From NCBI GenBank assembly GCA_038210595.1, contig JBBQWN010000005.1, positions 31,862 to 95,861 on the forward strand: DNA of 64,000 nucleotides, written 5' to 3'. Numbering within the stretch: position 1 is the first letter of the stretch; every line of letters begins with the position of its first letter. The notes under the pieces are model-generated. The model was given only the letters and a program-made list of their open reading frames with translations, did not search any database and was not told where the DNA came from. Made by a program: the position numbers and the translations under genes. The stretch is from Sphingomonadales bacterium. Its GTDB lineage: Bacteria > Pseudomonadota > Alphaproteobacteria > Sphingomonadales > Sphingomonadaceae. Shown piece after piece: positions 17,163 through 52,231 of the stretch.

Positions 17163-17894
17163 ATGGCTACATCTAGTATCTTGGCGTCTATCGTCGTCGC
17201 CGTCCTTGCCGCGCCGGCCGCCGCGACCGTCCACGTCATCACCTTTTCGGGTACTGTCAGCGTAGGACTCGATCTGGCCGGCGCCTTCGGCACGCCGATA
17301 GCCTCTCTCACCGGCCGCCCTTACACAGCCAGCTACGCCTATGACCTGTCGCTGGGTACGCGAACCACCAGCACTGGGATCGCGGATGCCGTGACAGGTG
17401 GCGATCTGCTGGGCACCGTCTCGCCGATCATCGATGCATCACTTACCATCAATGGGATAACACATCACTTCGGCTCGCAGGACGGAATGGGTACGGCAAA
17501 ATACCTTCAGCTCGGTCTCGGTAGCCTCGGTGTCTATGGCGTCGCAGCGCGATCCGGCTCGCCGTATCTGGCCACCGTGGCCGTCATACCTGGCTTTACA
17601 CCCTCGCTCGACAATGACCTGGCGCTGCGGTCCGATGTCACGTGGAAGAGCGAATTCCTGATCGGCAGCGCAAATCCCTTGCAATTCGCCTTCGGCATTC
17701 TCGGCCCGGGACCGAACTCGGAGTTCTCCATTCAGACACTCGTGCCGGAACCTGCAAGCTGGACGATGATGATCGCCGGGTTCGGGCTGGTCGGTGTCGC
17801 CGCCCGACGAAACTCCCGATCACTTGCCTCAGCGACGCCGCGTCAGCCCTGGCGGCCAGCCAGGCTGGCCAGAGCGGGTGGCCGACCGCACTAG
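17163..17894 (+). CDS. PEPxxWA-CTERM sorting-domain protein (putative exosortase substrate)
   Basis: N-terminal signal peptide (MATSSILASIVVAVLAAPAAA). The C-terminal motif VPEPASWTMMIAGFGLVGVAARR is PEP, then a TM helix, then an Arg cluster. An unusual ~28-aa extension follows the Arg cluster. Confidence 0.75.
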   Translation: MATSSILASIVVAVLAAPAAATVHVITFSGTVSVGLDLAGAFGTPIASLTGRPYTASYAYDLSLGTRTTSTGIADAVTGGDLLGTVSPIIDASLTINGITHHFGSQDGMGTAKYLQLGLGSLGVYGVAARSGSPYLATVAVIPGFTPSLDNDLALRSDVTWKSEFLIGSANPLQFAFGILGPGPNSEFSIQTLVPEPASWTMMIAGFGLVGVAARRNSRSLASATPRQPWRPARLARAGGRPH

Positions 17895-19699
17895 GCGCGG
17901 CCGCCCTTCGACGCGATCCAGTCATCCACCTTCCGCTCCAGCACTTCCATCGGCAGCGCCCCCGACATTAGCACCTGGGCGTGGAAATCGCGCACGTCGA
18001 ACTTCGGCCCCAGCGCCTTCTCGGCTTTGGTGCGCAGGCGGCGGATGGTCAGCTGTCCGACCTTGTAGGCCAGCGCCTGGCTGGGAATGGCGATGTAGCG
18101 CTCGACCTCGGCGGTGGCGTCGGTCTTTCCCATCGCCGAATTGTCGAGCATGTATTTGATCGCCTGGTCGCGGGTCCAGCCCTTGCTGTGGATGCCGGTG
18201 TCGACAACCAGCCGCATGGCACGCAGGATCTCGTCGTCGAGATGGCCGTAATTCTGGTAGGGATCGGTGTAGAAACCGAGCTCATAGCCTAGGCTCTCGG
18301 CATAGAGTGCCCAGCCCTCGACGAAGGCTGTATTACCGCCAAAACGCTGGAACGCCGGGAGGCTCTCCTTCTCCTGCGCCAGGCTGATCTGGAAATGGTG
18401 GCCCGGCACGCCTTCGTGGAGGAACAGCGTCTCGAAGCCGAACTTCGAGCGCGAGGGCAGGTCATAGGCGTTGTAGTAGAACACGCCCGGTCGCGAGCCG
18501 TCGGGGGTGCCCTGCTGGTAGCTGCCTGCCGCGTCGGTCTTTTCCTTGTAGGCCGGCACCGGGCGCACCTCGAGCGGCGACTTCGGAATGGTCGAGAAGT
18601 CCTTGCGGACAACTGCCTCCATGCGCTTGTCGATGGCCAGGAAGTCGTCCTTCATCGCCTCGGCGGATGTCGGGTGGAAGCGCGGATCGGTGCGCATGAA
18701 CACGAAGAACTCGGCGAGGTTACCCTTGAAGCCGGTCTCGTCCTTGATCTTCGTCATCGCGGTATGGATACGGTCGACCTCGCGCAGGCCGAGCGCATGG
18801 ATTTCCTCCGGCGTCATCGTTGTCGTCGTGGTCTGCTCGACAAGGTAACGGTACAGTGCCGCGCCGCCCGGCATCTGGCCCAGCCCGACGGTTTCGCGGG
18901 CCTTGGGCAAATACTCGGTCTTGATGAAGTCGCGCACCCGCGCCTGCGCCGGGTTCAGCCGGTCGCGGATGAACGCCGCATAGTCGGCGGTGATCCGGGC
19001 GCGGTCGGCGGCGGCAATGCCGTCAGGGAACTTCAGGACCGGCTTGTAGAAAACGCTGTCCTCGACCTTCGCGGGCAGCAGGTTGTCGAACTGGCCGACG
19101 ACGTTCTGCATGACCAGCCGCGGGTTGGTGACGCCGTCGGCCAGGCCCTGCTTCATGCGTCCGATGGCGCGATCAAGGTAGACAACATAGCCATCCAGCC
19201 GCTTCAGGTTATCGTCATAGTCCTTGACCGACTTGAACGGGGCCGCACCCTCGCCCGACGAAACGTCCGGGATAAACACCTGGAAACCGCCGAAATGGTC
19301 GATCGGCCGTTCGATCGAGGCCTTGAGCAGGCCCGGCTTGAAGCCCTTTAGGCCGATCTCGGTCTGGTATTTGAAGACGTCGTAGGAGATCCGGTCGTCG
19401 AGGTTGAGCTTCGAGCGGTCGATCTTCTTGAGCGCCGCGAGATCGGCCTCGCCCGCCGCCTTCTCGCCCGCCAACCATTGGTCGGTGATGAAATCGCCGA
19501 ACTGCGCCGCGTAGCGCATGTCGCCGCGGAACAGCGCCTGGATCGGGTTGCGCTTGAGTTGTGCCTCGTCGCTGGCGGCGAACAGCGCCTTGAGCTCGGC
19601 CGACGCCGGCACATTGGGCGCAGCGGTGGTCACGGCAGCGGCAGGCGCGGCGAGCGGCAGCGCGGTGGTCAGCAGCAGGGCGGCGAGAATCGATCGCAT
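17891..19699 (-). CDS. Exported DUF885 family protein (putative metallopeptidase fold)
   Basis: MRSILAALLLTTALPLAAPAAA is a signal peptide. LHEGVPGHHFQ is the DUF885 HExxGHH motif. The start was chosen at the internal ATG that gives the signal peptide. Confidence 0.8.
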   Translation of the reverse strand: MRSILAALLLTTALPLAAPAAAVTTAAPNVPASAELKALFAASDEAQLKRNPIQALFRGDMRYAAQFGDFITDQWLAGEKAAGEADLAALKKIDRSKLNLDDRISYDVFKYQTEIGLKGFKPGLLKASIERPIDHFGGFQVFIPDVSSGEGAAPFKSVKDYDDNLKRLDGYVVYLDRAIGRMKQGLADGVTNPRLVMQNVVGQFDNLLPAKVEDSVFYKPVLKFPDGIAAADRARITADYAAFIRDRLNPAQARVRDFIKTEYLPKARETVGLGQMPGGAALYRYLVEQTTTTTMTPEEIHALGLREVDRIHTAMTKIKDETGFKGNLAEFFVFMRTDPRFHPTSAEAMKDDFLAIDKRMEAVVRKDFSTIPKSPLEVRPVPAYKEKTDAAGSYQQGTPDGSRPGVFYYNAYDLPSRSKFGFETLFLHEGVPGHHFQISLAQEKESLPAFQRFGGNTAFVEGWALYAESLGYELGFYTDPYQNYGHLDDEILRAMRLVVDTGIHSKGWTRDQAIKYMLDNSAMGKTDATAEVERYIAIPSQALAYKVGQLTIRRLRTKAEKALGPKFDVRDFHAQVLMSGALPMEVLERKVDDWIASKGGRA

Positions 19700-19759
19700 C
19701 GTTCTATCTCCGAATCGGTGTATTGGGCGGATAAGACGCTTGGCGTGGCGGTGCAACGG

Positions 19760-21055
19760 CTATTTCATCGGGATCGGCTTGCCTGCTGTCATCACGTAGC
19801 TGACGCTGAGTACAGCCTTCGGATCGCGCTGCGGATCGCCATCGACCGCGATGAGATCGGCGAACTTGCCGACTTCTAGTGTGCCGGTCCTGTCGGCCAC
19901 GCCGAGCAGCTCCGCGGCACCCTTGGTCGCGGCGACCAGTGCGTCCTTCGGCGTCATGCCGTGCTCGACGATCAGCGCTAGCTCCTCGGCATTGCGGCCG
20001 TGCGGATAGACGGCGGCATCGGTGCCGAGAGCGATGCGCACCCCGGCCTTCTGCGCGACGCCGATGTTGCGCCCGACGATCTGCATCGTCTGCAGCGCCT
20101 TGGCCTCGACGTTGGGCGTGTAGAAATTCTTGCCGATGTGCAGCTTCAGACCTTCATAGGCCATCAGCGTCGGCACGAGCCACGTGCCGTGCGCCTTCAT
20201 CGCTGCCGCCGCCTTGGCATCGAGGTACGTGCCGTGCTCGATCGAATCGACGCCGGCATTGGCCGCCGCCTCGATGCCGCGCGCGCCGTGCGCATGCGCC
20301 ATCGCTTTCAGTCCGACGCCGTGCGCGGCATCGACGATGGCCTTCATCTCGGCGTCGGTGAAGTGCTGCTCCAGCCCGATCGCGCCGTCGTCGAGGACGC
20401 CGCCGGTAGCCATGAATTTGATGACATCGACGCCCTTCGCGGCGAGGTGACGAACCGCGACGGCGCACGCCTCGGGCGAGTCGCAGACGCCGGGGTTGAG
20501 CCCTTGCGCATTCATCGCATCGGCGATCTCCGGGCTCAGCCCGACGGCGTTGTCGCCGTGCCCGCCCGAAATCGACAGGGGCGTGCCGGCGACCAGGATG
20601 CGCGGCCCCGGGAACGAACCTTCGGCGACTGCGTCGCGCATCGCCAGGCTGGCGAGCGTCGGGCCGCCAGCGTCGCGGACCGTGGTGAAGCCGGCGCGCG
20701 CCGTGATGAGCGCGTTCTTCAGGCCGGTCGCGGCTGCATAGGGTTCCGAGAACTTGGGCCGCAGCGATGCATACCACGGCAGGCCCGAATCCTGGGTCAG
20801 GTGCACATGGGCGTCGATCAGGCCGGGCATCACGGTCTTGGTCGACAGATCGATCACTTTCGCGCCCGCCGGTGCCGCCATGCCGGCCGGCCCGATGGCG
20901 ACGATGCGCCCGTCAGTGACGACGAGGCTGGACGCTCCCCGCGCCGGCTGCGCCGCATCGGTGACCAAGCGTCCGGCGCGGATAACCAGCGTTTCGGCGG
21001 CGGCGGGCGCGGCGGCGGCAAGCGCCAGCACGGCGGCGGTCAAGACATGGCGCAT
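19760..21055 (-). CDS. Exported amidohydrolase family protein
   Basis: Signal peptide MRHVLTAAVLALAAAAPAAA. PGLIDAHVHL metal-binding motif with downstream HAHG and GTDA motifs. Confidence 0.85.
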   Translation of the reverse strand: MRHVLTAAVLALAAAAPAAAETLVIRAGRLVTDAAQPARGASSLVVTDGRIVAIGPAGMAAPAGAKVIDLSTKTVMPGLIDAHVHLTQDSGLPWYASLRPKFSEPYAAATGLKNALITARAGFTTVRDAGGPTLASLAMRDAVAEGSFPGPRILVAGTPLSISGGHGDNAVGLSPEIADAMNAQGLNPGVCDSPEACAVAVRHLAAKGVDVIKFMATGGVLDDGAIGLEQHFTDAEMKAIVDAAHGVGLKAMAHAHGARGIEAAANAGVDSIEHGTYLDAKAAAAMKAHGTWLVPTLMAYEGLKLHIGKNFYTPNVEAKALQTMQIVGRNIGVAQKAGVRIALGTDAAVYPHGRNAEELALIVEHGMTPKDALVAATKGAAELLGVADRTGTLEVGKFADLIAVDGDPQRDPKAVLSVSYVMTAGKPIPMK

Positions 21056-21177: not shown

Positions 21178-22497
21178 TTGCCGCTGAAGCGCTCGCGCTT
21201 GTTCGCCTTTGCCGCACCCTACCTGCCGCTGTCTGCGGTCGGCCTGCCCGCTGTCGTCTATCTGCCGCCTTACTACGCCGCAGAACTCGGCCTGGGCCTG
21301 GAGGCGGTCGGGCTGATCTTTCTCGTTGTCAGGCTGATCGACATCCCGCTCGATCCGGTGCTCGGCCACTTAATTGATCGGACCAAAGGACGGCTCGGGC
21401 GCTTTCGACCGTGGCTGGCGGGCGGCGCGGCGCTGATGGCGGCAGGCGCGCTGGCGGTGTATTTCGCGGTACCCGGGATTTCGGCGGGTGCCGCGCTGGC
21501 CGGGCTGCTGGTTCTGTATTTCGGCTATTCGGCGATGATGGTGGCGCAGACCGCGTGGGGCGCGACGCTGTCCGACGACTATCATGAGCGCAGCCGGGTG
21601 TTCGGCTGGTGGATGGCCCTGACCCAGGTCGGCATGCTGCTGGTGCTGGCGCTGCCGCCGCTGCTACCGCGACTAATCCCGGGCGCGGGGATCGCGTCGG
21701 GCATTCACGGCATGGGTTGGCTGGTCATCGCTGGCGCGCCGCTTACCGCACTATTGTGCCTGTCGGTGCTGCCGGAGCGGGCGCGGACCGGCAACCACGC
21801 CAAGCTGGCTGACTTCGCGCGCGTCGTCGCCAACCCGCTGATGCGCCGCCTGCTGCTCGTTGACCTGCTCGCCAACCTGGCACCCGGGGTCACCGGCGCG
21901 CTGTTCCTGTTCTTTTTCCAGGCGGTGAAAGGATATTCGGCCGCTTCCGCGTCGGCGCTGCTGCTCGTCTACTTCGTCGCCGGTCTCGCGGGCGTGCCGC
22001 TGTGGACCCGGCTCGCGCGTGCCACGTCCAAGCATCGCGCGATCGTCGTCGCCCTGCTGTTCTATTGCGTGACGCAGAGCCTGACCGCGCTGCTGCCGCC
22101 CGGAAACTGGCCCGTGGCAGCGATCGGCATGGCGCTGGCCGGTGTGCCTTATGGTGCCACCGCGCTGTTGCTGCGCGCCATGCTCGCCGACCTGTCCGAT
22201 GCCGAGACGTTGGCGTCGGGCGGCGACAAGACCGCGCTGTTCTACGCCGCTGGGGTCGGCGTGCAGAAGCTGGGCTATGCAATCCCGGTCGGGGTGCTGT
22301 ACCCGGTGCTGAGTGCGCTCGGCTTTGTTGCGGTCAAGGGTGCAGGCAACAGTGCGGACGCGCTGAACGGTCTGACCCTGTTGTTCACCGCGCTGCCCGT
22401 GGTTCTGGCGCTTGCAGCCGCGTGGACCGTGCGTTCCTGGCCGATCGACGCAGCAGCGCAGTCGGCGACAGCGGCCGCGCTTCGCGGCAATGTTTGA
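21178..22497 (+). CDS. MFS transporter of the glycoside-pentoside-hexuronide (GPH/MelB-like) type, TTG start
   Basis: 439 aa and about 12 predicted TM segments. The N-terminal LIDIPLDPVLGHLIDRTKGRLGRFRPWL motif (D-x-x-G-x-x-x-D-R-T...GR.RPW) is characteristic of GPH symporters. GGAAGGGA lies upstream of the TTG. Confidence 0.8.
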   Translation: MPLKRSRLFAFAAPYLPLSAVGLPAVVYLPPYYAAELGLGLEAVGLIFLVVRLIDIPLDPVLGHLIDRTKGRLGRFRPWLAGGAALMAAGALAVYFAVPGISAGAALAGLLVLYFGYSAMMVAQTAWGATLSDDYHERSRVFGWWMALTQVGMLLVLALPPLLPRLIPGAGIASGIHGMGWLVIAGAPLTALLCLSVLPERARTGNHAKLADFARVVANPLMRRLLLVDLLANLAPGVTGALFLFFFQAVKGYSAASASALLLVYFVAGLAGVPLWTRLARATSKHRAIVVALLFYCVTQSLTALLPPGNWPVAAIGMALAGVPYGATALLLRAMLADLSDAETLASGGDKTALFYAAGVGVQKLGYAIPVGVLYPVLSALGFVAVKGAGNSADALNGLTLLFTALPVVLALAAAWTVRSWPIDAAAQSATAAALRGNV

Positions 22498-22506
22498 GTA
22501 ATTATG

Positions 22507-22532
22507 TTGCTATAAGGTCGCCCTTGTAGCAA
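22507..22532. promoter_or_regulatory. Near-perfect 26-bp palindrome TTGCTAtAAGGtcgcCCTTgTAGCAA between the transporter gene and pcs
   Basis: 11 of 13 positions pair by hand alignment. It sits 35 nt upstream of the pcs GTG. A second small palindrome, GGAAactgTTCC (22533-22544), follows. No U-tract. Confidence 0.4.
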
Positions 22533-22566
22533 GGAAACTGTTCCAATCGACTCGCAGGATGTATCC

Positions 22567-25500
22567 GTGGCGCTTCTTGACGACGACCTCACGCTTCGTG
22601 GCCCGGCATCCGCGCCGGCTGTCAACCCGGTCCGCGACCGCTCGGCTTGGGAAGCAATGCGCGCCGCAGTGCTTGCCGATCCCGGCCGCTTCCACGGCGA
22701 CATTGCCGGCGAGACCATCCACTGGCTGATCGACGGCGCCTGGCTGAGCCGCGACGGCGCGACCTGGAAGGGCTGGGACGCCGCCACCGCCGCCCCGGTC
22801 AGCCGCGACCTGGGCGCCGATTTCGCGCCCTGGACCAAGGCCTTCGACAACAGCGACGCGCCGCACTACCGCTGGTTCGCGGGCGCGCAGACCAATGCCG
22901 CGTTCAACGAGGTCGACCGGCATGTGCTCGCCGGCCACGGTGCGGAAGCCGCGCTGATCTTCGAGGGCGACCGCTGGGACATGGCGGCGAACAAGGGCCG
23001 CGGCGGCCCGGTGGACGAGTTTCCCGTCTCCCGCCGCACCCTGCTGCTGGAGAGCGCCAAGTGCGCGCTGGCGCTCAAAGCTTTAGGCCTGAAGCAAGGC
23101 GACAGCATCGCGATCAACATGCCGTCGATCGTGCCCCAGATCTTCTGGACGGAAGGCGCCAAGCGCGCCGGCGTCATCTACACGCCGGTGTTCGGCGGGT
23201 TCAGCGACAAGACGCTGAGCGACCGTATTCATGACGCCGGCGCCAAGGTCGTCATCACCGCCGACGGCGGCTACCGCACAGCGCAGGTCGCAGCGTTCAA
23301 GACCGCCTACACCGACCCGGCGCTCGACAACTACATCCCGGTCGAGGTCGCGCTGCGCTTGATCGACGGCCTCGATTTGCCCGCCGAGCAGAAGGCGGCA
23401 ATCCTCGAGGCCGCGAAGGCAGCGCTGAAGGGCGAAGTCACAGTCGAGCGCTCCGACGTCATGCGCGGCGTCGGCCGCGCCCTGGCGACGCTGGGCCTCG
23501 ACGCGGCAGAATCGAGCCAGGTCCGCATCGCGGTCGCCAGCGCACTGGTCGATTCGCCACCGCGCGTCGATGCCGTCATCGTCGTGAAGCACACCGCGAC
23601 GCCCGACCTGGTGTGGCGCTCGCGCGACCGCTGGAGCCACGAGCTGACCGACGCCGCGGGCAAGGAGATCCTCGCCGCCGCCGGGCTGGCATCGGAAGCC
23701 GACCTGCTGGCGCTGCCCGACGAGGCGTTCGTCGCGGCGATCTGGAAAGCCTGCCCGCCGCTGCCGGTCGATGCCGAATTCCCGCTGTTCGTCATCTATA
23801 CCAGCGGCTCGACCGGCAAGCCCAAGGGCGTCGTCCACGTCCACGGCGGCTATATCGCCGGCATCGCCCACACGATGAAGGTCGCGTTCGACGCGCGCCC
23901 CGGCGACGTGCTGTACGTCGTCGCCGATCCCGGCTGGATCACCGGGCAGAGCTACCTGATCTCGGCGGCGCTGACGACACGCACGACGACGCTGATCACC
24001 GAAGGCTCGCCGGTGTTCCCGCACGCCGGGCGCTTCGCCGCCAGCATCGAGCGCCACGGCGTCACCATCTTCAAGGCCGGCGTCACCTTCCTGAAGTCGG
24101 TGATGAGCGACCCGCAGAACCTGCGCGACCTGCGTTCGTGGGACATGAGCTCGCTGCGCGTCGCGACCTTCTGCGCCGAGCCGACGTCGCCGCCGGTGCA
24201 GGCGTTCGGCATGGCCGAGATCACGCCCTGGTACATCAATTCCTACTGGGCGACCGAGCACGGCGGTATCGCCTGGACGCAGTTCTACGGCGCCGCCGAC
24301 TTCCCGCTGCGCCCCGACGCCCACACCTGGGCGCTGCCGTGGATCGTCGGCGAGGTCCGTATTCCGACCGACGACGCCCTGACCCACGCCAAGTGGCGCG
24401 AGGCGGCGCGCGGCGAGAAGGGCGAGATCGTCATCGCGCGCCCCTATCCCTATCTCGCGCGCACCGTCTGGGGCGATGCCGCCAATGTCGGCCAGCCGGG
24501 CTGGAAGGGTGACGCGGCGCGCTGGGAGGGCAGCTACTGGACCCGCTGGGACGGCGCGCCTGCCTATACCCAGGGCGACTTCGCCGTGCAGCACGAGGAC
24601 GATTCGTTCAGCCTCCACGGCCGCAGCGACGACGTCATCAATGTCAGCGGCCACCGCATGGGCACCGAGGAGATCGAGGGCGCGATCCTGCGCGACCGGG
24701 CACTCGACCCCAACTCGCCGGTCGGCAACGTGCTCGTCGTCGGCGCGCCCGACGCGACCAAGGGCCTGACCCCGCTCGCCTTCGTCGTTGCCTCGCCGGG
24801 CCGCAAGATCACGCAAGCCGACCGCAACCGCCTGACCGAACTGGTGCGCAGCGAGAAGGGGCCGACCGCCGTCCCCGCCGATTATCTGGAGGTCAAGGCG
24901 TTCCCCGAGACGCGTTCGGGCAAATACGTTCGCCGCATGGTCCGCGCCCTGGTCGAGGGCGGCGACCTGGGCGACACCTCGACCCTGCGCAATCCCGAGA
25001 GCCTCGACGACCTGCGCGAGGTGATCACCACCTGGCAGCGCCGCCAGCACCTGAGCGAGACGCAGCAACTGTTCGAGCGCTACCGCTACTTCCGCATCCA
25101 GTACAACACTGTCGCGCCCGGCAAGAAGGTGGCGACGGTCACCATCACCAACCCGCCGGTCAATGCGCTGAACGAGCGCGCGCTCGACGAGCTCAACATC
25201 GTCGTCGATCACCTGTCGCACCGCGACGACGTGGTCGCGGTCGTGTTCACCGGCGAAGGCACCGCGAGCTTCGTCGCGGGTGCCGATATCCGCCAGTTCC
25301 TCGACGAGATTCACGACGAGGACGAGGCGCGCGTCCTGCCCAACAACGCCCAGCTGGCGTTCAACAAGATCGAGGCGATGGACAAGCCCTGCATCGCCGC
25401 CATCCAGGGCGTCGCGCTGGGCGGCGGCATGGAGTTCGCGCTCGCCTGCCATTACCGCATCGCGGAGCCACACGCCCGCTTCGGGCAGCCGGAGATCAGG

Positions 25501-27879
25501 TTGCGGCTGATCCCGGGGTATGGGGGAACGCAACGGTTGCCGCGATTGCTGGCGGCGCATGGCGGGCAGCAGGGACTGTCCACGGCGCTCGAGATGATCC
25601 TGGGCGGGCGCAGCGTCGATGCCGAATTCGCTCTAAATGCCGGGTTGATCGACGAGGTCGTCGACGGCAGCGAGGACGCGCTGAGCCGCGCGCATGCCTT
25701 GGTCCGTGAAATCGTCGGTGGCCGCGAAATTCGCCGCGCCGCCAGCGAGCCGAGCGCCGACCTCGACGCGGCGCTCGCCGACCCGTTCATCGAGAGCATC
25801 GTCAGCCAGCTCCAATGGGCGGGCCGCGCAGATGCCGGCCGCCGCGCCATCGATGCGATCCGCACCGGCTGGACGCAGGGCATCGCGGCAGGCCTGGCGC
25901 GCGAGGCCGACCATTTCGCGGCCGCGGTCGTCCACCCGCAGGGCGGCAAGACCGGCATCCGCCAGTTCATCGACAAGACGAGCCCGGCGCTGCCGGTGCG
26001 GAGCGCGGACGCGGACACCACCGCGCCGCTGCCGGTCGGCGCACCGTTCTTCCCGGGCATCACGCCGCTGCCGACACGCCAGCATGGCTTCGGCATTGCC
26101 CGCGATCCGGCCACCGGGCAGCCGGGTTTCGGCCCGCCGGGTACGCACGAGAAGGAGCTGATCGTCCCGGTCGACGAGCCTGCCGCCAACGACGCGCTCG
26201 TCTACATGCTGACCTCGGAGGTCAATTTCAACGACATCTGGGCGCTGACCGGCATTCCGGTGTCGCCGTTCGACGGGCACGAGAACGACTATCAGACCAC
26301 CGGGTCCGGCGGTGTCGGGCTGGTCGCGGCGCTGGGCTCCGAGGCGCGGGCCGAGGGGCGGTTGAAGGTCGGCGACCTGGTCGCGGTCTATTCGGGGACC
26401 AACGACCTGCTCAGTCCGCAGGTCGGGCGCGACCCGATGTTCGCGGACTTCGCCATCCAGGGTTACGAGACCGAGACCGGCAGCCATGCGCAGTTCCTCG
26501 TCACCCAGGCGCCGCAGCTCCACCACGTCCCGGCCGACCTGACGCTGGAGGCGGCGGGGAGCTATATCCTCAACCTCGGCACCGTCGTCCGCGCGCTGTT
26601 CACGACGCTGGAGATCGAGCCCGGCAAGCGGCTGTTCGTCGAGGGCTCCGCTACCGGCACCGGCCACGACGCGCTGAAGACCAGCATCCGCACCGGGCTG
26701 CACGTGACCGGCCTCGTCTCGTCGCCGAGCCGCGCGGCGTTCGTGAAGGAGGTCGGCGCGGTCGGCGCACTCGACCGGACCGATCCGCGCTTCAAGGCGG
26801 CGTTCACCGCCGTGCCCGAGGACCCGGCAAAGTGGGCGGCATGGGAGGCGGCGGGCCAGCCTTTGCTCGACGAGTATCGCGCCATCAACGACGGGCAGTT
26901 GGCGGACTATGCCGTCAGCCATGCCGGCGAGACGGCCTTCCCGCGCACCTTCCAGCTGCTCGGCGAGGGCGGCATCCTGGCCTTCTACGGCGCGTCGTCG
27001 GGCTATCACTTCACCTATGTCGGCAAGCCGGGTGCCAGCGACCCGACGACGATGCTGCGCCGGGCCAAGCTGCGCGGCGGCGAGGCGGTGCTGCTGTTCT
27101 ATGGCCCGTGCAGCCGCGAACTGGCCGATCCGACCGGCCTCGAGATGATCGAGGCGGCGCGTGCCGCCAAGGCCCGCACCGTCGTCGTCACCACCACCGA
27201 CGGCCAGCGCGAGTTCCTGCAGTCGCTGGGCTTCGAGGATGCCATCGCCGGCATCGTCAGCCTGGAGGATTTAAAGCGCCGCCAGGGCGACCAGTTCGAA
27301 TGGCCCGACGCGATGCCGCGCCTGACGCCGGCGCGCGACGACATCGAGACCTTCCGCAGCGAAGTGCGGGACTATCAGGAAAAGACGCTGAAGCCCTTCG
27401 GCGCGGCGGTCGGGCGGCTGTTGCGCTCCCCCGACAATCCGCGCGGGTCGCCCGACCTGATCATCGAGCGTGCCGGCCAGGATACGCTCGGGGCGTCGAC
27501 GGCGCTGGTCAAGCCGTTCACCGGGCGGGTCGTGTACTCCGAGGACTGCGCCGGGCGGCGCTACTCCTTCTACGCGCCGCAGGTGTGGACGCGGCAGCGG
27601 CGCATCCTGATGCCGACCGCCGAGATCCGCGGCACCCACCTGTGCAACGCCTACGAGGTGACGCGCATGAACGACATGATCGCGGCCGGCCTGCTCGACG
27701 TGACGCCGCCGACGGTGGTGCCGTGGGAGGGCCTGCCCGAGGCGCACCAGTCGATGTGGGAAAACCGCCATTCGGGCGCGACCTATGTCGTCAACCACGC
27801 GCTGCCGGCGTTGGGGCTGCGCAGCAAGGACGCGCTGCTTGAAGCCTGGGCGGCGCAAGAGGCGGAGTCAGCCAAGTGA
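22567..27879 (+). CDS. pcs: Trifunctional propionyl-CoA synthase (3-hydroxypropionyl-CoA synthetase / dehydratase / acrylyl-CoA reductase fusion)
   Basis: 1770 aa. GTG start with AGGA 7 nt upstream. The N-terminus is collinear with my recollection of Chloroflexus aurantiacus Pcs (NP.RDR..WEA.RAA.LADPG.FHG.IA...IHW; APxYRWF.G..TNA.FNEVDRHV; YTPVFGGFSDKTLSDRIH.AGA.VVIT). Ligase motifs are YTSGSTGKPKG and ETRSGKYVRR (about aa 1-840). Crotonase motifs are FVAGADI and GGGMEFALACH (about aa 840-1040). An MDR/crotonyl-CoA-reductase-like domain has VEGSATGTG (about aa 1190-1770). Confidence 0.95.
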   Translation: MALLDDDLTLRGPASAPAVNPVRDRSAWEAMRAAVLADPGRFHGDIAGETIHWLIDGAWLSRDGATWKGWDAATAAPVSRDLGADFAPWTKAFDNSDAPHYRWFAGAQTNAAFNEVDRHVLAGHGAEAALIFEGDRWDMAANKGRGGPVDEFPVSRRTLLLESAKCALALKALGLKQGDSIAINMPSIVPQIFWTEGAKRAGVIYTPVFGGFSDKTLSDRIHDAGAKVVITADGGYRTAQVAAFKTAYTDPALDNYIPVEVALRLIDGLDLPAEQKAAILEAAKAALKGEVTVERSDVMRGVGRALATLGLDAAESSQVRIAVASALVDSPPRVDAVIVVKHTATPDLVWRSRDRWSHELTDAAGKEILAAAGLASEADLLALPDEAFVAAIWKACPPLPVDAEFPLFVIYTSGSTGKPKGVVHVHGGYIAGIAHTMKVAFDARPGDVLYVVADPGWITGQSYLISAALTTRTTTLITEGSPVFPHAGRFAASIERHGVTIFKAGVTFLKSVMSDPQNLRDLRSWDMSSLRVATFCAEPTSPPVQAFGMAEITPWYINSYWATEHGGIAWTQFYGAADFPLRPDAHTWALPWIVGEVRIPTDDALTHAKWREAARGEKGEIVIARPYPYLARTVWGDAANVGQPGWKGDAARWEGSYWTRWDGAPAYTQGDFAVQHEDDSFSLHGRSDDVINVSGHRMGTEEIEGAILRDRALDPNSPVGNVLVVGAPDATKGLTPLAFVVASPGRKITQADRNRLTELVRSEKGPTAVPADYLEVKAFPETRSGKYVRRMVRALVEGGDLGDTSTLRNPESLDDLREVITTWQRRQHLSETQQLFERYRYFRIQYNTVAPGKKVATVTITNPPVNALNERALDELNIVVDHLSHRDDVVAVVFTGEGTASFVAGADIRQFLDEIHDEDEARVLPNNAQLAFNKIEAMDKPCIAAIQGVALGGGMEFALACHYRIAEPHARFGQPEIRLRLIPGYGGTQRLPRLLAAHGGQQGLSTALEMILGGRSVDAEFALNAGLIDEVVDGSEDALSRAHALVREIVGGREIRRAASEPSADLDAALADPFIESIVSQLQWAGRADAGRRAIDAIRTGWTQGIAAGLAREADHFAAAVVHPQGGKTGIRQFIDKTSPALPVRSADADTTAPLPVGAPFFPGITPLPTRQHGFGIARDPATGQPGFGPPGTHEKELIVPVDEPAANDALVYMLTSEVNFNDIWALTGIPVSPFDGHENDYQTTGSGGVGLVAALGSEARAEGRLKVGDLVAVYSGTNDLLSPQVGRDPMFADFAIQGYETETGSHAQFLVTQAPQLHHVPADLTLEAAGSYILNLGTVVRALFTTLEIEPGKRLFVEGSATGTGHDALKTSIRTGLHVTGLVSSPSRAAFVKEVGAVGALDRTDPRFKAAFTAVPEDPAKWAAWEAAGQPLLDEYRAINDGQLADYAVSHAGETAFPRTFQLLGEGGILAFYGASSGYHFTYVGKPGASDPTTMLRRAKLRGGEAVLLFYGPCSRELADPTGLEMIEAARAAKARTVVVTTTDGQREFLQSLGFEDAIAGIVSLEDLKRRQGDQFEWPDAMPRLTPARDDIETFRSEVRDYQEKTLKPFGAAVGRLLRSPDNPRGSPDLIIERAGQDTLGASTALVKPFTGRVVYSEDCAGRRYSFYAPQVWTRQRRILMPTAEIRGTHLCNAYEVTRMNDMIAAGLLDVTPPTVVPWEGLPEAHQSMWENRHSGATYVVNHALPALGLRSKDALLEAWAAQEAESAK

Positions 27880-30800
27880 ACGCACCGATCGTCGAGCCGC
27901 TGGTCGGCACCTCCGGGCGGCTCGCCGGCAAGATTGCGCTGGTCACCGGCGCGGCCGGCAACCTCGGCGGCGAGATCGTCCGCCACTACCTGCGCGAGGG
28001 CGCGACGGTGGTGATGACCGGGCGCACCCCGGCGCGCACCGATGCGGCGCGCGAGGCTGTTCTGGCAGAGACAGGTGCCGATCCGGCGCGGGTCTCGACC
28101 GTCGTGCTCGACGGCGCGGACGCCGCATCGGTCCGCGCCGGCATCGCCGCGGTTGTGGAGCGCCACGGTCGCATCGACATCCTCGTCAACAATGCGGGAT
28201 CGGCGGGGCCGAAGGCGCCGCTGGAGCGCGTGCCGCTGACCGCCGACGAACTGGCGAACGGCGATACCGAGACGGTCAGCGCGGCGGCGCGCAGCCTGCT
28301 TGGCGTCGCCTGGAATCTGGTCCGCGCGGCGGCGGACGCGATGCCGCCGGGCGGGTCGATCGTCAACGTCTCGACCATCTTCAGCCGCACCCAATATTAT
28401 GCGCGCACGGCCTATGTCGTGCCCAAGGCGGCAATGAATGCGCTGTCGAAGACACTGGCGCGCGAGCTGGGCTCCCGCGGCATCCGGGTCAACACGCTGT
28501 TCCCCGGCCCGATCGAGAGCGACCGCATCCGCACCGTCTTCGCGGCGATGGACAAGTTGCAGGGCAAGCCGGCGAACGCCACCGCCGACCATTTCACCGG
28601 CATCATGGCGTTGGCCCGTGGTGCGGCGGCAGCGGATGCCAAGCCGCTGCCGACGCCGACCGATATCGCCGCCACCTGCGTGTTTCTCGGTTCCGACGAG
28701 AGCGCCGCCTTCACCGGCCACGATTTCGAGGTCACGCACGGCATGGATGTGCCGAAGGAATCGCGTTCGACCTATCTGTCGCGGCCGACGATGCGCTCCA
28801 TCGATGGCGCGGGCCTCGGCATTGTCGTGGCCGGCGGCGACAGCCTTGCGGACGCGCTGGAGATTGCGCGAGTGCAGGCAAACTGCGGGGCGGCGGTCTT
28901 GCTCGGCTTCGGCAGCGACGCCGCGGTCGCGATGGTGCAGCGCCGCCTCGATGCCGAGCCCGCGACCGGCGCACTGACGCTGGCGCGCTTCGACCGTAGC
29001 GATCCGGCCCAGATGGAGGCGGCGCTCGAAGCCTTTGGAGCTGAGATCACCGGCGCGATCATCTTGCCCGAGTTTGGCAACGACTTCTTCAACGGGCCGC
29101 TGCACGCGGCGTCGGACGAACAGGTCGACAGCTTCATCGACGCCGAGCTGACCGGCGCCGTCGCCGTCGCGCGGTCGCTGACGCGCTACTGGAAGCGCCA
29201 CGACGCGCTGGTCCACGAGCCGCGCTTCGTGTTCGTCGGCGGGCCGTCGGACGGCGGCGACAACGGTTGGAACGGCCTGCTCGCGGCTGCCTGCGAGCAG
29301 CTGGTGCGGGTCTGGCGCGACGAGAGCCAGGTCGATGTCGCAGCCGGCAAGCGGCGGCAGGCGGAGTGGGGCAACCAGATCGTCCGCACCGACAACCACG
29401 AGCCGGAGAATGTCCGCTTCACCGCCGGCCAGTGCGCGCGCATCCTGCTGAAGGAGCGCAAGGTCCAGCCGATCAGCCTGTACCTGCCCGAATCGATCGG
29501 CGAGGCGACCGGCGCGCGCGTCGCCATGGTCGGGTTCGCCGAGAACATCACCGGGCTGCATCTCGGAAAGGTCGCGCTTATCACCGGCGGCTCGGCCGGC
29601 ATCGGCGGTCAGGTCGCGCGGCTGCTGGCGCTGGCGGGTGCCAAGGTCATGCTCGTTGCACGCCGCGAGAGCGAACTGGCGACAATGCGCGCGCGTATCG
29701 TCGGCGAGCTCGAGGACGTCGGCTTCTCCGGCGTCGAGCGGCGCGTCCGCACGCTGTCGGGCATCGACGTCAGCGACCACGCGGCGCTCAACAAGGCGGT
29801 CGACGAGACCATCGCCGCGTTCGGGCGCATCGACTATCTGATCAACAATGCCGGCATCTCCGGCGCCGAGGAGATGGTCGTCGACATGGACGTCGCCGCC
29901 TGGCGGCGGACGCTGGATGCGAATTTGATCTCCAACTACGTCCTCGCGCATGCCGTGGTGCCAAGGATGAAGGCGCAGGGTTCCGGCTACATCCTCAACG
30001 TCAGCAGCTATTTCGGAGGCGAGAAGCACCTTGCCGTCGCCTACCCCAACCGCGCCGACTATGCGGTCAGCAAGGCTGGACAGCGGGCGATGGCGGAGGC
30101 GTTCGCGCGGTCGCTGGGTCCGGAAATTCAGATCAACGCCATTGCGCCGGGCCCGGTCGACGGCGACCGCCTGTCGGGCAAAGACGGCAAGGCCGGACTG
30201 TTCGACCGCCGCGGCCGGCTGATTCTGGAAAACAAGCGGCTAAATGCCGTCCACTCGGCGGTCATCCGCGCCGTCCGGGGCGGCGCGGCGATAGACACCG
30301 TACTCGGTCGCCTGGCGCGCAACGACTCGGTCCGCATCGCCCATGACCGTGACAATCCGCGTGAGCTTCGCGATCTGGCGCTATCCTGTGCGCAGGAAGG
30401 CGACGAAACCTGCAGTTGGGACCGTTTCATCCTGACCCGCGAGATCGCCGCGCGGCTTGTCCGCCGCCTGCGGCTGGGCGGCTACCTGACCGCGTCGCCG
30501 GCCTGGGCCACACGTCCCTCTACGGACGAAGCCGATGGCAGCTGGCTGCTGCGCGTACCGCTCGACGACAAGCCCTGGCTGCCGCCGGCGCGGATCGCGG
30601 CCGAGGCGGCCAAGGTCGGTGGCGGCGTCACCTCGCTGCTCAACCTCGGCCGCATGCCGACCGAGGGCGAGGTTGCGCAGGCGACGGTGTTCTTCCTCGC
30701 CGACCGCGCCGTCAGCGGCGAATGCTTCATGCCGTCGGGCGGCCTGAGCCTCGAACGCTCGACCGTCGAGCGCGAACTGTTCGGCAGCCCCAAGGCCGAG

Positions 30801-31514
30801 CGGCTGGAGCAGATGGCGGGCAAGACCGTGTGGATTATCGGGGAGCACCTCGTCGATTATCTGGCGGGCTGCGCCCAGGCCTTTGCCGACCTAGCGGTGG
30901 CGCGCGTCGTGTTCATCACGCGAACAGATGAAGGGGCGGAGACGCTGACCGCCACCGTTGCCGGCGCTCCGCTCGAATGCGTGACGGCCGGCGATGACCT
31001 GGAGGGGGCGCTGGATCGTGCCCTTGCGCAATGGGGACCACCGACGACCATCGTTTCGTCGCCGTTCACGCCGCTGCCCGACCGCCTGTTCGGCGACGAA
31101 AGCCTGAGTCCGGCCGCGTTTGCGACTCTGTGCGAGGACAATCTGACTCATCACTTCCGGGTCAGCCGCAAGGCCTCGCTCTACGACCATTGCCAGCTGG
31201 TACTGGTCACCCCCGATGTCGAGATCGGGCGCACCGGCCCGGCGTTCGCACTGGCCAACTTCATCAAGACCTCGCTTCACGCCTTCACCGCGACGCTGGC
31301 GGTCGAGAACGAGCGGCTGATCCACGATGTGCCTGTCAATCAGATCAACCTGACCCGGCGCGTTCGCAGCGAGGAACCCCGCAACCGTGACGAACATGAG
31401 GAGGAGGTTCGCCGGTTCGCCCGCGCCGTGTTGCTGGCCGGCGCGCCGCTGCCCGACGCGGAGGACTCGCGTTACCGCGCCCGCATCTATCGCGGCATGT
31501 CGATGACCGTCTAA
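27876..31514 (+). CDS. mcr: Bifunctional malonyl-CoA reductase (malonyl-CoA -> malonate semialdehyde -> 3-hydroxypropionate), four SDR-type domains
   Basis: 1212 aa. GTGA overlap with pcs. Long stretches are near-identical to the Chloroflexus Mcr sequence as I recall it: GRLAGKIAL.TG.AGN.G; NVSTIFSR..YY.R..YV.PKAA.NALS; RGIRVNT.FPGPIESDRIRTVF; GLHLGKVALITGGSAGIGGQ; GSGYILNVSSYFGGEK; YPNRADYAVSKAGQRAMAE; GPEIQINAIAPGPV.GDRL; FALANFIKT.LHAFTAT. TGxxGxxG and YxxxK motifs are present in both halves. Confidence 0.95.
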   Translation: MNAPIVEPLVGTSGRLAGKIALVTGAAGNLGGEIVRHYLREGATVVMTGRTPARTDAAREAVLAETGADPARVSTVVLDGADAASVRAGIAAVVERHGRIDILVNNAGSAGPKAPLERVPLTADELANGDTETVSAAARSLLGVAWNLVRAAADAMPPGGSIVNVSTIFSRTQYYARTAYVVPKAAMNALSKTLARELGSRGIRVNTLFPGPIESDRIRTVFAAMDKLQGKPANATADHFTGIMALARGAAAADAKPLPTPTDIAATCVFLGSDESAAFTGHDFEVTHGMDVPKESRSTYLSRPTMRSIDGAGLGIVVAGGDSLADALEIARVQANCGAAVLLGFGSDAAVAMVQRRLDAEPATGALTLARFDRSDPAQMEAALEAFGAEITGAIILPEFGNDFFNGPLHAASDEQVDSFIDAELTGAVAVARSLTRYWKRHDALVHEPRFVFVGGPSDGGDNGWNGLLAAACEQLVRVWRDESQVDVAAGKRRQAEWGNQIVRTDNHEPENVRFTAGQCARILLKERKVQPISLYLPESIGEATGARVAMVGFAENITGLHLGKVALITGGSAGIGGQVARLLALAGAKVMLVARRESELATMRARIVGELEDVGFSGVERRVRTLSGIDVSDHAALNKAVDETIAAFGRIDYLINNAGISGAEEMVVDMDVAAWRRTLDANLISNYVLAHAVVPRMKAQGSGYILNVSSYFGGEKHLAVAYPNRADYAVSKAGQRAMAEAFARSLGPEIQINAIAPGPVDGDRLSGKDGKAGLFDRRGRLILENKRLNAVHSAVIRAVRGGAAIDTVLGRLARNDSVRIAHDRDNPRELRDLALSCAQEGDETCSWDRFILTREIAARLVRRLRLGGYLTASPAWATRPSTDEADGSWLLRVPLDDKPWLPPARIAAEAAKVGGGVTSLLNLGRMPTEGEVAQATVFFLADRAVSGECFMPSGGLSLERSTVERELFGSPKAERLEQMAGKTVWIIGEHLVDYLAGCAQAFADLAVARVVFITRTDEGAETLTATVAGAPLECVTAGDDLEGALDRALAQWGPPTTIVSSPFTPLPDRLFGDESLSPAAFATLCEDNLTHHFRVSRKASLYDHCQLVLVTPDVEIGRTGPAFALANFIKTSLHAFTATLAVENERLIHDVPVNQINLTRRVRSEEPRNRDEHEEEVRRFARAVLLAGAPLPDAEDSRYRARIYRGMSMTV

Positions 31515-31524
31515 AGAGGCGGCC

Positions 31525-32469
31525 ATGAACGATTGGCTGGATTTCGAGAAACCCGTGGCGGCACTCGCCGACAGCGCGGCAGCGCTGCGTACGGCGGGGA
31601 CGCCCGAAGCGCTGGCGGAGGCCCCGCGGCTCGAGGAACGGGCGAAGCGGTTGCTGGCCGACCTCTACGGTCGCCTCACCCCGGCCCAGCGAATGCAGGT
31701 GGCGCGCCACCCGGCGCGGCCGCACTTCAAGGATTATGTCGCCGCACTGATCGAAGATTTCGTGCCGCTGGCGGGCGACCGTGGGTTCGGCGAGGATGCG
31801 GCGATCGTCGGTGGCATCGGTCGATTGCAGGGGCGCAGCGTTGTCGTGATCGGCCACGAGAAAGGCAACGACACCGCCAGCCGGGTAAAGCACAACTTCG
31901 GCATGGGCCGGCCGGAGGGCTATCGGAAGGCGACACGCCTAATGCAGCTGGCTGGCCAGTTCGCGCTTCCCGTCGTTACTTTCGTCGATACGCCCGGCGC
32001 CTATCCGGGCTTGGAAGGCGAAGCGCGCGGACAGGCGGAGGCGATCGCCCGCGCCACCCAAGCCTGCCTTGAGCTGCCAGTACCAATGGTTGCGGCGATC
32101 GTCGGCGAGGGCATGTCGGGCGGCGCGATCGGGCTGGCCGCCGCCAACAAGCTGCTGATGTTCGAGCATGCCGTCTATGCGGTCATCTCGCCCGAGGGCT
32201 GCGCCTCTATCCTGTGGCGCGGCGAGGCCGGCAGGGCGGCGGACGCCGCCGCCGCGATGAAGATCACCGCGGCCGACCTGCTCCGCCTCGGCATCATCGA
32301 CCGGATCGTCTACGAGCCCCCCGGCGGAGCGCACCGCGATCCGGCAACCGCGATGGCGCGGCTGGGTAGTGCGATCGGCGAAGAGCTTGGCAGTCTCGCC
32401 GGGCTGGACGCCGCGGCGCTGAGAAAGCAACGCCGCGACAAGTTCATCGCAATGGGCCGCAACCTGTAG
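31525..32469 (+). CDS. accA: Acetyl-CoA carboxylase carboxyltransferase alpha subunit
   Basis: 314 aa. MNDWLDFEKPVAAL...ARHPARPHFKDYV...RPEGYRKA.RLM.LA..F.LPVVTFVDTPGAYPG..GEARGQAEAIA. It starts 10 nt after the mcr stop, with AGAGG as a Shine-Dalgarno-like element. Confidence 0.95.
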   Translation: MNDWLDFEKPVAALADSAAALRTAGTPEALAEAPRLEERAKRLLADLYGRLTPAQRMQVARHPARPHFKDYVAALIEDFVPLAGDRGFGEDAAIVGGIGRLQGRSVVVIGHEKGNDTASRVKHNFGMGRPEGYRKATRLMQLAGQFALPVVTFVDTPGAYPGLEGEARGQAEAIARATQACLELPVPMVAAIVGEGMSGGAIGLAAANKLLMFEHAVYAVISPEGCASILWRGEAGRAADAAAAMKITAADLLRLGIIDRIVYEPPGGAHRDPATAMARLGSAIGEELGSLAGLDAAALRKQRRDKFIAMGRNL

Positions 32470-32474
32470 AGGCT

Positions 32475-32508
32475 TGCCCCGCCGACCCCCTCCAGGTCCG
32501 GCGGGGCA
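32475..32508. terminator. GC-rich hairpin (10-bp stem TGCCCCGCCG / CGGCGGGGCA, 14-nt loop) between convergent accA and mucR
   Basis: The inverted repeat was read directly. It lies 6 nt after the accA stop and 7 nt after the mucR stop. No clear U-tract on either side. Confidence 0.55.
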
Positions 32509-32514
32509 GGTCGC

Positions 32515-32988
32515 TCAGGCGGTCTTGCTGACGCGCGGCTTGCGCGGCTTCGGCGCGTCGCCGTTCGCGGCCGGCACCCGCGGCTTGCGGCCGAGGCCGA
32601 GCCGCTTGGCGACTTCGCGCCGGGCGTCCGAATAACCCGGCGCAACCATCGGATAGGTCGCCGGAAGATTGTAGCGCGAGCGATACTCTTCCGGAGTCAT
32701 GCCGTGGCCGGTCAGGTGGCGCTTCAAGCTCTTGTACGGCTTGCCGTCGATCAGCGAGAGAATGAAATCGCGGTTGGCGAGCGACTTACGCGCGGTAACC
32801 GCCGGCTGATGCGTCTCGGCGCTGCCACCGACGGTTTCGGTGCCGGGGCCCGACAGGCCGCTCAGCGCGGCATGAGTCGAGGCGATCAACGCCGGCAGAT
32901 CATCGACGCGGACATTGTTGTTCGCGACGAACGCCGAGAGCAGCTCGACTGTCAGTTCAGTGAGATCCTGTTGCTGTGTAGTATCCAT
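32515..32988 (-). CDS. mucR: MucR/Ros family zinc-finger transcriptional regulator
   Basis: MDTTQQQDLTELTVELLSAFVANNNV...SLIDGKPYKSLKRHLTGHGMTPEEYRSRYNLPATYPMVAPGYS is the diagnostic Ros/MucR domain. The start was taken at the internal ATG (complement of 32986-32988). Confidence 0.9.
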   Translation of the reverse strand: MDTTQQQDLTELTVELLSAFVANNNVRVDDLPALIASTHAALSGLSGPGTETVGGSAETHQPAVTARKSLANRDFILSLIDGKPYKSLKRHLTGHGMTPEEYRSRYNLPATYPMVAPGYSDARREVAKRLGLGRKPRVPAANGDAPKPRKPRVSKTA

Positions 32989-33158
32989 GGATTGACCCTT
33001 AACCATAAGAATGCCCCGCCGCGCGCGTCGAGAACGAGGCGACTTACACTCTGCTTTACGGAACCGGTCAAGATTCAAATGAAGCGGGCTTGATTGTCGC
33101 CGCCTAACATGCCGCCAGACCGATCATTCAGACTTGCCAGATCACGACAATCTGGTCA

Positions 33159-51781: not shown

Positions 51782-52231
51782 TCAAGCGGCGAACGGCTTC
51801 ACGATTGCCAGAATGACGATCAGGATCGTCGCCAGCGCCGGCACCTCGTTCAGCAGGCGCAGGGTCTTTTCGGCATAGGGCCGCTCGCCGCGCGCAAATT
51901 TCTTCGCCGTGCCCGCCAACCAGCCGTGATAGCCCGACAAAAAGACCACCAGCGTGATCTTCAGGTGCAGCCAGCCCGCGCCCGCGAAACCGTAGCTCGT
52001 CGCCACCATCAGCCCGAGCACCCATACCAGCACCAGCCCCGGATTGACGATGATCCGCAGGATCCGCCGGTTGCGCTCGTTCCACAGCGCATCCTCCGCC
52101 GAGCCGACGGGTGCAGCCATCTGATAGACCAGGAAGCGGGGCAGCATGAACAGACCCGCCATCCAGAAGATCACCGCGATTACGTGGAACGCCTTGACCC
52201 AGTCGTAGGCGCCGCCGAGCCAGCCGGTCAT
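51782..52231 (-). CDS. hemJ: Protoporphyrinogen IX oxidase HemJ-type membrane protein
   Basis: 149 aa, 4 TM. WVKAFHVIAVIFWMAGLFMLPRFLVY is the HemJ/UPF0093 signature. ATGA overlap with hemE. Confidence 0.8.
   Translation of the reverse strand: MTGWLGGAYDWVKAFHVIAVIFWMAGLFMLPRFLVYQMAAPVGSAEDALWNERNRRILRIIVNPGLVLVWVLGLMVATSYGFAGAGWLHLKITLVVFLSGYHGWLAGTAKKFARGERPYAEKTLRLLNEVPALATILIVILAIVKPFAA

Follow-up and report, generated by a model that had tools for sequence, protein, structure and literature searches.

A 64,000-nt window of contig JBBQWN010000005.1 (assembly GCA_038210595.1, positions 31,862 to 95,861 of the forward strand; all coordinates below are window positions) was analyzed around a long open reading frame (ORF) at 22567 to 27879. 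Sequence comparisons support the identification of its product as a full-length trifunctional propionyl-CoA synthase (Pcs) in a sphingomonad chromosome, and the host appears to be a Glacieibacterium-like member of the Sphingosinicellaceae. Together with the two genes that follow it, mcr and accA, pcs very probably encodes the segment of the 3-hydroxypropionate (3-HP) bi-cycle that leads from acetyl-CoA to propionyl-CoA. This reading is based on the gene order, on the intact domains and motifs, and on full-length orthology to the Pcs of Erythrobacter sp. NAP1 and to malonyl-CoA reductases (Mcr) of solved structure. The three genes are:

22567 to 27879, + strand: pcs, trifunctional propionyl-CoA synthase, 1770 amino acids (ORF list, translation, homology)
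27876 to 31514, + strand: mcr, bifunctional malonyl-CoA reductase, 1212 amino acids (PDB matches, Pfam SDR, motifs)
31525 to 32469, + strand: accA, acetyl-CoA carboxylase carboxyltransferase alpha subunit, 314 amino acids (Pfam ACCA, 2.5e-124)

Pcs was searched against all PDB sequences, and identity was counted from the printed alignment. The best match was 6EQO, the Pcs of Erythrobacter sp. NAP1, with 2629 bits in one stretch (query 22-1768 versus 23-1846) and 68.9% identity over 1686 aligned residues. The two proteins, both from Sphingomonadales, have the same order of three domains and share the ligase, crotonase and reductase motifs. The window Pcs is 80 residues shorter, with 78 deleted residues distributed over 19 gaps of no more than 13 residues each, the largest of which (13 residues) follows residue 607. 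The NAP1 enzyme has reportedly been crystallised (6EQO; Bernhardsgruetter et al. 2018, Nat Chem Biol). Stand-alone chains of acetyl-CoA synthetases (ACS), enoyl-CoA hydratases (ECH) and crotonyl-CoA carboxylases/reductases (CCR) matched single domains of Pcs only, with at most 262 bits, which is 10-20 times lower. The full-length match to 6EQO and the far weaker one-domain chains rule out a reading of the ORF as separate ACS, ECH and CCR paralogues. From the Chloroflexi, whose Pcs is the enzyme of the 3-HP bi-cycle (Alber and Fuchs 2002 for Chloroflexus aurantiacus), the proteins of Roseiflexus sp. (P0363) and of a member of the Chloroflexia (P0330) were compared. Identity was 59% to P0363 and 60% to P0330 over the full length, and the proteins are collinear from about residue 10 of the window Pcs to the C-terminal region. 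The collinear match to 6EQO and these identities to Chloroflexi Pcs show that the initial annotation, made from the sequence without database searches, was right in proposing a trifunctional propionyl-CoA synthase. Its remark on collinearity with the Chloroflexus type is supported through the Roseiflexus and Chloroflexia proteins. Pcs corresponds to KEGG K14469 and to EC 6.2.1.36, 4.2.1.116 and 1.3.1.84, and relatives are named 'acrylyl-CoA reductase (NADPH)/3-hydroxypropionyl-CoA dehydratase/3-hydroxypropionyl-CoA synthetase' by JGI.

The domain content of Pcs agrees with this identification. Pfam domains occur in the order ACAS_N, AMP-binding and AMP-binding_C, followed by ECH_1 and then ADH_zinc_N, all of them above the gathering score, and the following domains were delimited:

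22567 to 25026, + strand: ligase domain of Pcs, about residues 1-820, acetyl-CoA-synthetase-like, ANL superfamily (Pfam, PDB alignment, motifs)
25102 to 25956, + strand: dehydratase domain of Pcs, about residues 846-1130, crotonase fold (Pfam ECH_1 at 854-1052, PDB alignment)
26074 to 27879, + strand: reductase domain of Pcs, about residues 1170-1770, MDR superfamily, crotonyl-CoA carboxylase/reductase-like (Pfam, PDB alignment)

The ligase domain contains ACAS_N at residues 86-114, AMP-binding at 157-626 and AMP-binding_C at 716-786, and ACS structures match residues 394-826. It harbors the ANL P-loop YTSGSTGKPKG (411-421), YWATEHGG at 560, GRSDDVINVSGHR at 685 and PETRSGKYVRR (780-790), in which the A10 lysine is K786 of PETRSGK. 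In an alignment of the window Pcs with 79 orthologues from species-representative genomes, these ligase motifs were found in 79-80 of the 80 sequences, the window protein included. Residues 846-1128 are matched by structures of enoyl-CoA hydratases and FadB/FadJ, among them the 3-hydroxypropionyl-CoA dehydratase 5ZAI. This domain carries the oxyanion-hole motif FVAGADI (902-908), GGGMEFALACH (952-962) with E956 in GGGME, and GQPEI (973) with E976; from general knowledge of the crotonase family, E956 and E976 are presumed to be the catalytic glutamate pair. The reductase domain is matched by the CCR structure 4GI2 at residues 1174-1484 and, below its cut-off, by the NCBIfam model crot-CoA-red at 1200-1484. 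It includes ADH_zinc_N (1366-1479) and ADH_zinc_N_2 (1629-1737), is collinear with residues 992-1846 of 6EQO and contains VEGSATGTG (1358-1366) with the nucleotide-binding motif GSATGTG (1360-1366). Thus the motifs of all three active sites are intact, the roles of their residues being assigned by what is established for the ANL, crotonase and MDR families in general. The Pfam order is that of the fusion of ligase, crotonase-type dehydratase and MDR reductase described in the initial annotation, and every motif quoted there is present in the translation.

The window DNA has a G+C content of 69% and contains long spurious ORFs on other frames, so the coding status of pcs was examined as well. 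An antisense ORF of 825 amino acids (23083 to 25560, - strand) is overlapped by the longer, homology-backed pcs, and the long antisense ORFs over pcs are most plausibly shadow frames, which are common where DNA is GC-rich. At third codon positions, pcs has a G+C content (GC3) of 0.91, and the other high-GC3 ORFs retained for the window range from 0.78 to 0.94; overall G+C stays level over the locus (0.685-0.705; window 0.64-0.73). This indicates that pcs is a real gene, and its GC3 together with the ordered Pfam domains rules out a reading frame kept open by chance through high G+C. The same values bear out the host-like, GC3-rich codon usage noted earlier. The gene consists of 1770 codons on the + strand and begins with GTG, which is preceded at a distance of 6 nt by an AGGA Shine-Dalgarno-like element (22557-22560). 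An NCBI assembly already contains an identical protein of 1770 amino acids with the same start (P0001; identity and coverage both 100%). A breadth scan of one genome per GTDB species yielded at least 571 confirmed relatives, and the best 80 of these were used for comparison of loci. The ORF is unbroken in the window and in 79 of the 80 related loci, which rules out a frameshifted or split pcs and confirms the single ORF of the initial annotation.

That annotation ended at the pcs stop codon and missed mcr downstream. The GTG start of mcr overlaps the TGA stop of pcs by 4 nt (GTGA), and accA begins 10 nt past mcr. Based on these junctions of -4 and +10 nt, the three genes are predicted to form an operon from 22567 to 32469 on the + strand and are presumably co-transcribed. 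Mcr enzymes convert malonyl-CoA via malonate semialdehyde to 3-hydroxypropionate (KEGG K14468). The window Mcr matches 8HI4 over its full length (1140 bits, query 12-1212) and 8HJW, a chain of 1219 amino acids (1131 bits), as well as the N- and C-terminal fragment chains 6K8V and 6K8S. We take 8HI4 to be the enzyme of Roseiflexus, 8HJW that of Chloroflexus and 6K8S/6K8V that of Porphyrobacter dokdonensis; 8HI4 and 8HJW are cryo-electron microscopy and crystal chains. Two catalytic SDR stretches were identified by Pfam, and by its full-length homology to the solved structures the protein is of the type with about 1200 amino acids and four tandem SDR domains. Its motifs YYARTAYVVPK (174-184) and YPNRADYAVSK (723-733) agree with the catalytic and substrate motifs YxxRxxY...K of SDR1 (Y172-Y178-K182) and SDR3 (Y743-Y749-K753) in the Mcr of Roseiflexus, RfxMCR (PMC10470521). 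AccA passes the NCBIfam equivalog NF004344 with 423.8 bits (cut-off 357).

By homology, the products of the operon can be arranged in a continuous route. AccA, together with AccBCD encoded elsewhere, would form malonyl-CoA from acetyl-CoA and bicarbonate, and Mcr would reduce malonyl-CoA with two NADPH to 3-HP, its C-terminal SDR3 producing malonate semialdehyde and its N-terminal SDR1 reducing this intermediate to 3-HP. The ligase domain of Pcs would then convert 3-HP, ATP and CoA to 3-HP-CoA, which the crotonase domain would dehydrate to acrylyl-CoA and the MDR reductase domain would reduce with NADPH to propionyl-CoA. By analogy with the NAP1 enzyme, these steps may take place inside an enclosed chamber that keeps in the reactive acrylyl-CoA. 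Propionyl-CoA would be passed on to succinyl-CoA via propionyl-CoA carboxylase and methylmalonyl-CoA mutase.

Several observations weigh against this reading. The window Pcs departs from the consensus at 13 of the 776 columns that are at least 95% conserved among the 80 aligned Pcs (519 columns are invariant), for instance at Q572 and D729, where the others have histidine, and it is about 50-80 residues shorter than most relatives. The accA gene is probably the housekeeping copy, so that its place beside pcs and mcr may carry little functional meaning, and 46 of the 80 loci lack accA in the module. The annotated genes of the 64-kb window include neither a propionyl-CoA carboxylase nor a methylmalonyl-CoA epimerase or mutase, and no photosynthesis genes either. 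The glyoxylate-salvage genes of the second cycle (mcl, mch, mct, meh and smtAB) were likewise not found in the window.

The 13 departures and the 19 short deletions could be taken as signs that Pcs is a diverged paralogue that acts on other short hydroxy-acids or as a reductive carboxylase. According to a review, the reductase domain of NAP1 Pcs has latent carboxylase activity, and remote Pcs-like clusters with degenerate ligase motifs exist (P0127 and P0134, see below). However, the window protein is 69% identical to the characterised enzyme and 86% identical to the Pcs of Glacieibacterium frigidum, it lies inside the canonical clade with every catalytic motif intact, and its synteny with mcr is conserved. 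A diverged function is therefore extremely improbable, and the assignment as a propionyl-CoA synthase is retained.

The physiological role of the segment was considered in the light of published work on related organisms. Porphyrobacter sp. ULC335 has the same set of Pcs, Mcr and AccA, and in the corresponding paper AccA is described as often associated with Pcs and Mcr. The 3-HP bi-cycle genes of this strain are day-activated and, as the authors suggest, may take part in the co-assimilation of CO2; the pathway is considered incomplete there, like that of NAP1, with second-cycle genes missing or partial. Based on this parallel, bicarbonate co-assimilation at the expense of NADPH and ATP during photoheterotrophic or mixotrophic growth is somewhat favoured as the role of the window operon; no claim of autotrophy is attached to it. 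A complete autotrophic 3-HP bi-cycle with CO2 as the sole carbon source, as in Chloroflexus, would be in accordance with the presence of both signature enzymes, Mcr and Pcs, in intact form. It would also be in accordance with the complete sets reported for some metagenome-assembled genomes (MAGs) of Burkholderiales and Gemmatimonadales that carry related genes (Garritano et al. 2022). However, the second-cycle genes listed above are not in the window, the pathway is judged incomplete in NAP1 and Porphyrobacter sp. ULC335, and the sets associated with aerobic anoxygenic phototrophs in Microcystis blooms are incomplete according to a published study. Autotrophy by this route is thus very improbable.

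Upstream of pcs, a transporter gene and an intergenic region bear on a further alternative:

21178 to 22497, + strand: MFS_2/GPH-family transporter gene (Pfam MFS_2, 1.9e-68), 69 nt upstream of pcs
22507 to 22566, + strand: upstream intergenic region of pcs with an inverted repeat and the AGGA element (read from the sequence)

According to this alternative, Pcs mainly assimilates external 3-HP, which is imported by the MFS transporter, and 3-HP produced by Mcr is secondary. Breakdown of acrylate, dimethylsulfoniopropionate, beta-alanine or uracil and exudates of algae or lichens would be examples of sources. Pcs alone is sufficient to bring 3-HP into propionyl-CoA, the transporter gene is close to pcs and on the same strand, and Garritano et al. 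(2022) proposed that partial bi-cycle sets serve to assimilate organic substrates, 3-HP included. However, cells that only consume 3-HP need none made from malonyl-CoA, and yet pcs and mcr share 4 nt in the window and are neighbours in at least 69 of the 80 loci. In addition, the transporter is of the glycoside-pentoside-hexuronide type, its NCBIfam gph score is below the cut-off, and a homologue of its gene turned up near pcs in none of the 80 related loci. Assimilation of external 3-HP as the main function is therefore unlikely, and the formation of 3-HP from malonyl-CoA by Mcr remains the preferred reading. Given its absence from these loci and the variation of the genes upstream of pcs, the transporter was rejected as a member of the module, and its gene probably lies outside it.

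Between the MFS gene and pcs, an inverted repeat TTGCTA-N14-TAGCAA is located at 22507-22532. It was not seen upstream of pcs in eight related loci inspected, that of G. frigidum included, so an operator role would be only a guess. A consensus scan found no sigma-70-like promoter in 22507 to 22566, and a scan for promoters and terminators gave nothing informative near the operon.

The module is widespread. At least 571 species-representative genomes encode a relative of Pcs, and a protein search returned hundreds of full-length relatives with at least 69% identity. The remark in the initial annotation that Pcs has been reported only sporadically outside the Chloroflexi is not borne out by these numbers, and its premise of rarity is outdated. 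The best 80 loci include members of Sphingomonadales, Gemmatimonadota, Burkholderiales (Rubrivivax, Piscinibacter) and Steroidobacterales, and named relatives include Glacieibacterium, Polymorphobacter/Sandarakinorhabdus, Novosphingobium, Sphingorhabdus, Sphingomonas, Sandaracinobacteroides and strain AAP81b. The pcs-mcr(-accA) module is kept across these four phylum- or order-level groups. Directly after pcs, mcr is found in at least 69 of the 80 loci, most of the others being cut by contig ends, and accA follows mcr in 34. The genes upstream of pcs vary by lineage (sugar transferase, acyl-CoA ligase, TonB receptor, GGDEF-EAL protein, LOV kinase), and inspection of these lineages revealed no regulator, transporter, pcc gene or other upstream partner that is conserved.

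In a neighbour-joining tree of Pcs, which largely follows taxonomy, the window protein is sister to that of G. frigidum inside the Sphingosinicellaceae clade. As the tree mirrors taxonomy and the composition is host-like, the sequence data point to vertical inheritance of pcs within the Sphingosinicellaceae. The host-like G+C and GC3 and the agreement of the tree with taxonomy led to the rejection of a recent horizontal transfer.

Pcs also occurs in more distant lineages. Remoter full-length proteins were found in Polyangia/Myxococcales, Bdellovibrionota, Verrucomicrobiota, Sulfobacillus benefaciens, Aneurinibacillus danicus and A. aneurinilyticus (P0273, P0288, P0322, P0324 and P0334). As these lineages are not known to be phototrophic, Pcs is not strictly tied to phototrophy. 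A clustering search at 50% with Pcs residues 600-1770 as the query gave four full-length Pcs-family clusters among the 150 best matches. P0127 (1832 amino acids, 41% identity) and P0134 (1828 amino acids, 33% identity; its cluster is named Gammaproteobacteria) are remote full-length Pcs-like proteins from MAGs of low G+C. They keep the three-domain layout and have degenerate ligase motifs such as YTAGLTGKPKP, YSSGSTSKARP and IPRVSSGKISR, and they may be neofunctionalised relatives of Pcs. P0131 (6910 amino acids, from a Chlamydiota MAG) and P0132 (2388 amino acids) carry a stretch that is 39-42% identical to the reductase region of Pcs (about residues 1155-1765), which indicates that the Pcs-type reductase module has been put to use in proteins of quite different architecture.

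The closest named relative is G. frigidum LB1R16 (locus L001), with 86% identity for Pcs, 78% for Mcr and 81% for AccA. Two extra ORFs, one of them encoding a GDSL lipase with a PEP-CTERM motif, are located between mcr and accA in this strain. Directly upstream of pcs, G. frigidum harbors a gene for a LOV-HWE histidine kinase, whereas the window has the MFS transporter at this position. The kinase (L001:8769-9827, same strand as pcs) comprises 352 amino acids with PAS_9 and HWE_HK domains and the LOV flavin-binding motif GRNCRFLQG; as predicted from these features, it is a blue-light sensor kinase. No counterpart was found in the window. In four other loci (L003, L004, L044 and L065), weaker PAS-HWE kinase matches that lack the LOV motif lie shortly downstream of mcr, on the strand opposite to it. 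The position of the LOV kinase beside pcs fits the day-activated expression reported for Porphyrobacter, but it may be a coincidence. It is tentatively suggested, with considerable doubt, that in cold-adapted Sphingosinicellaceae of the Glacieibacterium lineage the translationally coupled operon is a light-regulated shunt that spends NADPH and ATP to fix bicarbonate into propionyl-CoA derived from acetyl-CoA and then into succinyl-CoA, with the LOV kinase upstream of G. frigidum pcs as the sensor. If this applied, nominal heterotrophs would be measurable contributors to the uptake of inorganic carbon.

The other genes of the window represent an ordinary core chromosome and include phaC, sufBCDS, lysK, a sulfate ABC transporter, rho, hemE, aroE, hpf, msrB and a DEAD-box helicase. 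Scans of the window for tRNAs and Rfam families gave no matches. A pair of genes for a DUF885 protein and an amidohydrolase occurs near the module both in the window (17891-21055, - strand), where it is upstream, and in G. frigidum (L001:22201-25274, - strand), where it is downstream of accA; this placement points to a local rearrangement, the neighbourhood being conserved in other respects. For hemE, the longest ORF (52228-54282, - strand) comprises 684 amino acids, of which the URO-D domain spans only residues 349-682, so that the true start is probably far downstream and the longer ORF an over-call typical of GC-rich DNA. After accA, 689 nt without a confident gene or an Rfam match (32470-33158) hold only low-GC3 ORFs of 187 (- strand) and 129 (+ strand) amino acids.

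The window Pcs is one more orthologue of a known, well-populated family that is already characterised structurally and biochemically, and the NAP1 enzyme is routinely employed in synthetic pathways. The cluster has been described in NAP1 and Porphyrobacter, where its physiological role is called unsettled. Enzymes of the 3-HP bi-cycle have been reported from Alpha- and Gammaproteobacteria (Garritano et al. 2022). A 2026 preprint records the markers from known photoheterotrophs among the Pseudomonadota and Gemmatimonadota of fresh water and calls the role unresolved. Because the gene set and its spread among phototrophic heterotrophs are already published, and because the set is common in sphingomonads and other light-harvesting heterotrophs, the find itself is ordinary. 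The candidate roles of the partial pathway in aerobic phototrophic heterotrophs are CO2 co-assimilation, a redox valve and the use of 3-HP, and the cultured G. frigidum, Porphyrobacter and NAP1 are better suited than the window for deciding between them. In routine annotation, this widespread module of carbon metabolism is hidden by a gap: no model of NCBIfam release 20 is passed by Pcs or Mcr, and their best matches, to models for acetate--CoA ligase and generic SDR proteins, either stay below the cut-offs or bear no relation to them. As there is no NCBIfam model for either protein, relatives are named 'AMP-binding protein', 'acetate--CoA ligase' or 'SDR family oxidoreductase' by NCBI, whereas JGI names Pcs correctly.

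In Chloroflexus, Pcs acts within a complete autotrophic bi-cycle, whereas no evidence for the second cycle was found in the window, and the Pcs of Roseiflexus (P0363) is longer, with 1912 amino acids and extra insertions. The junction of pcs and mcr is tighter than in most relatives, which have gaps of about 70-250 nt in place of the 4-nt overlap of the window. Unlike NAP1 Pcs, the window protein falls into the Sphingosinicellaceae clade of the tree, which is separate from that of the Erythrobacteraceae. In NAP1, mcr presumably lies next to pcs as well, and the Porphyrobacter and Erythrobacter loci among the 80 show the same order of pcs, mcr and accA as the window.

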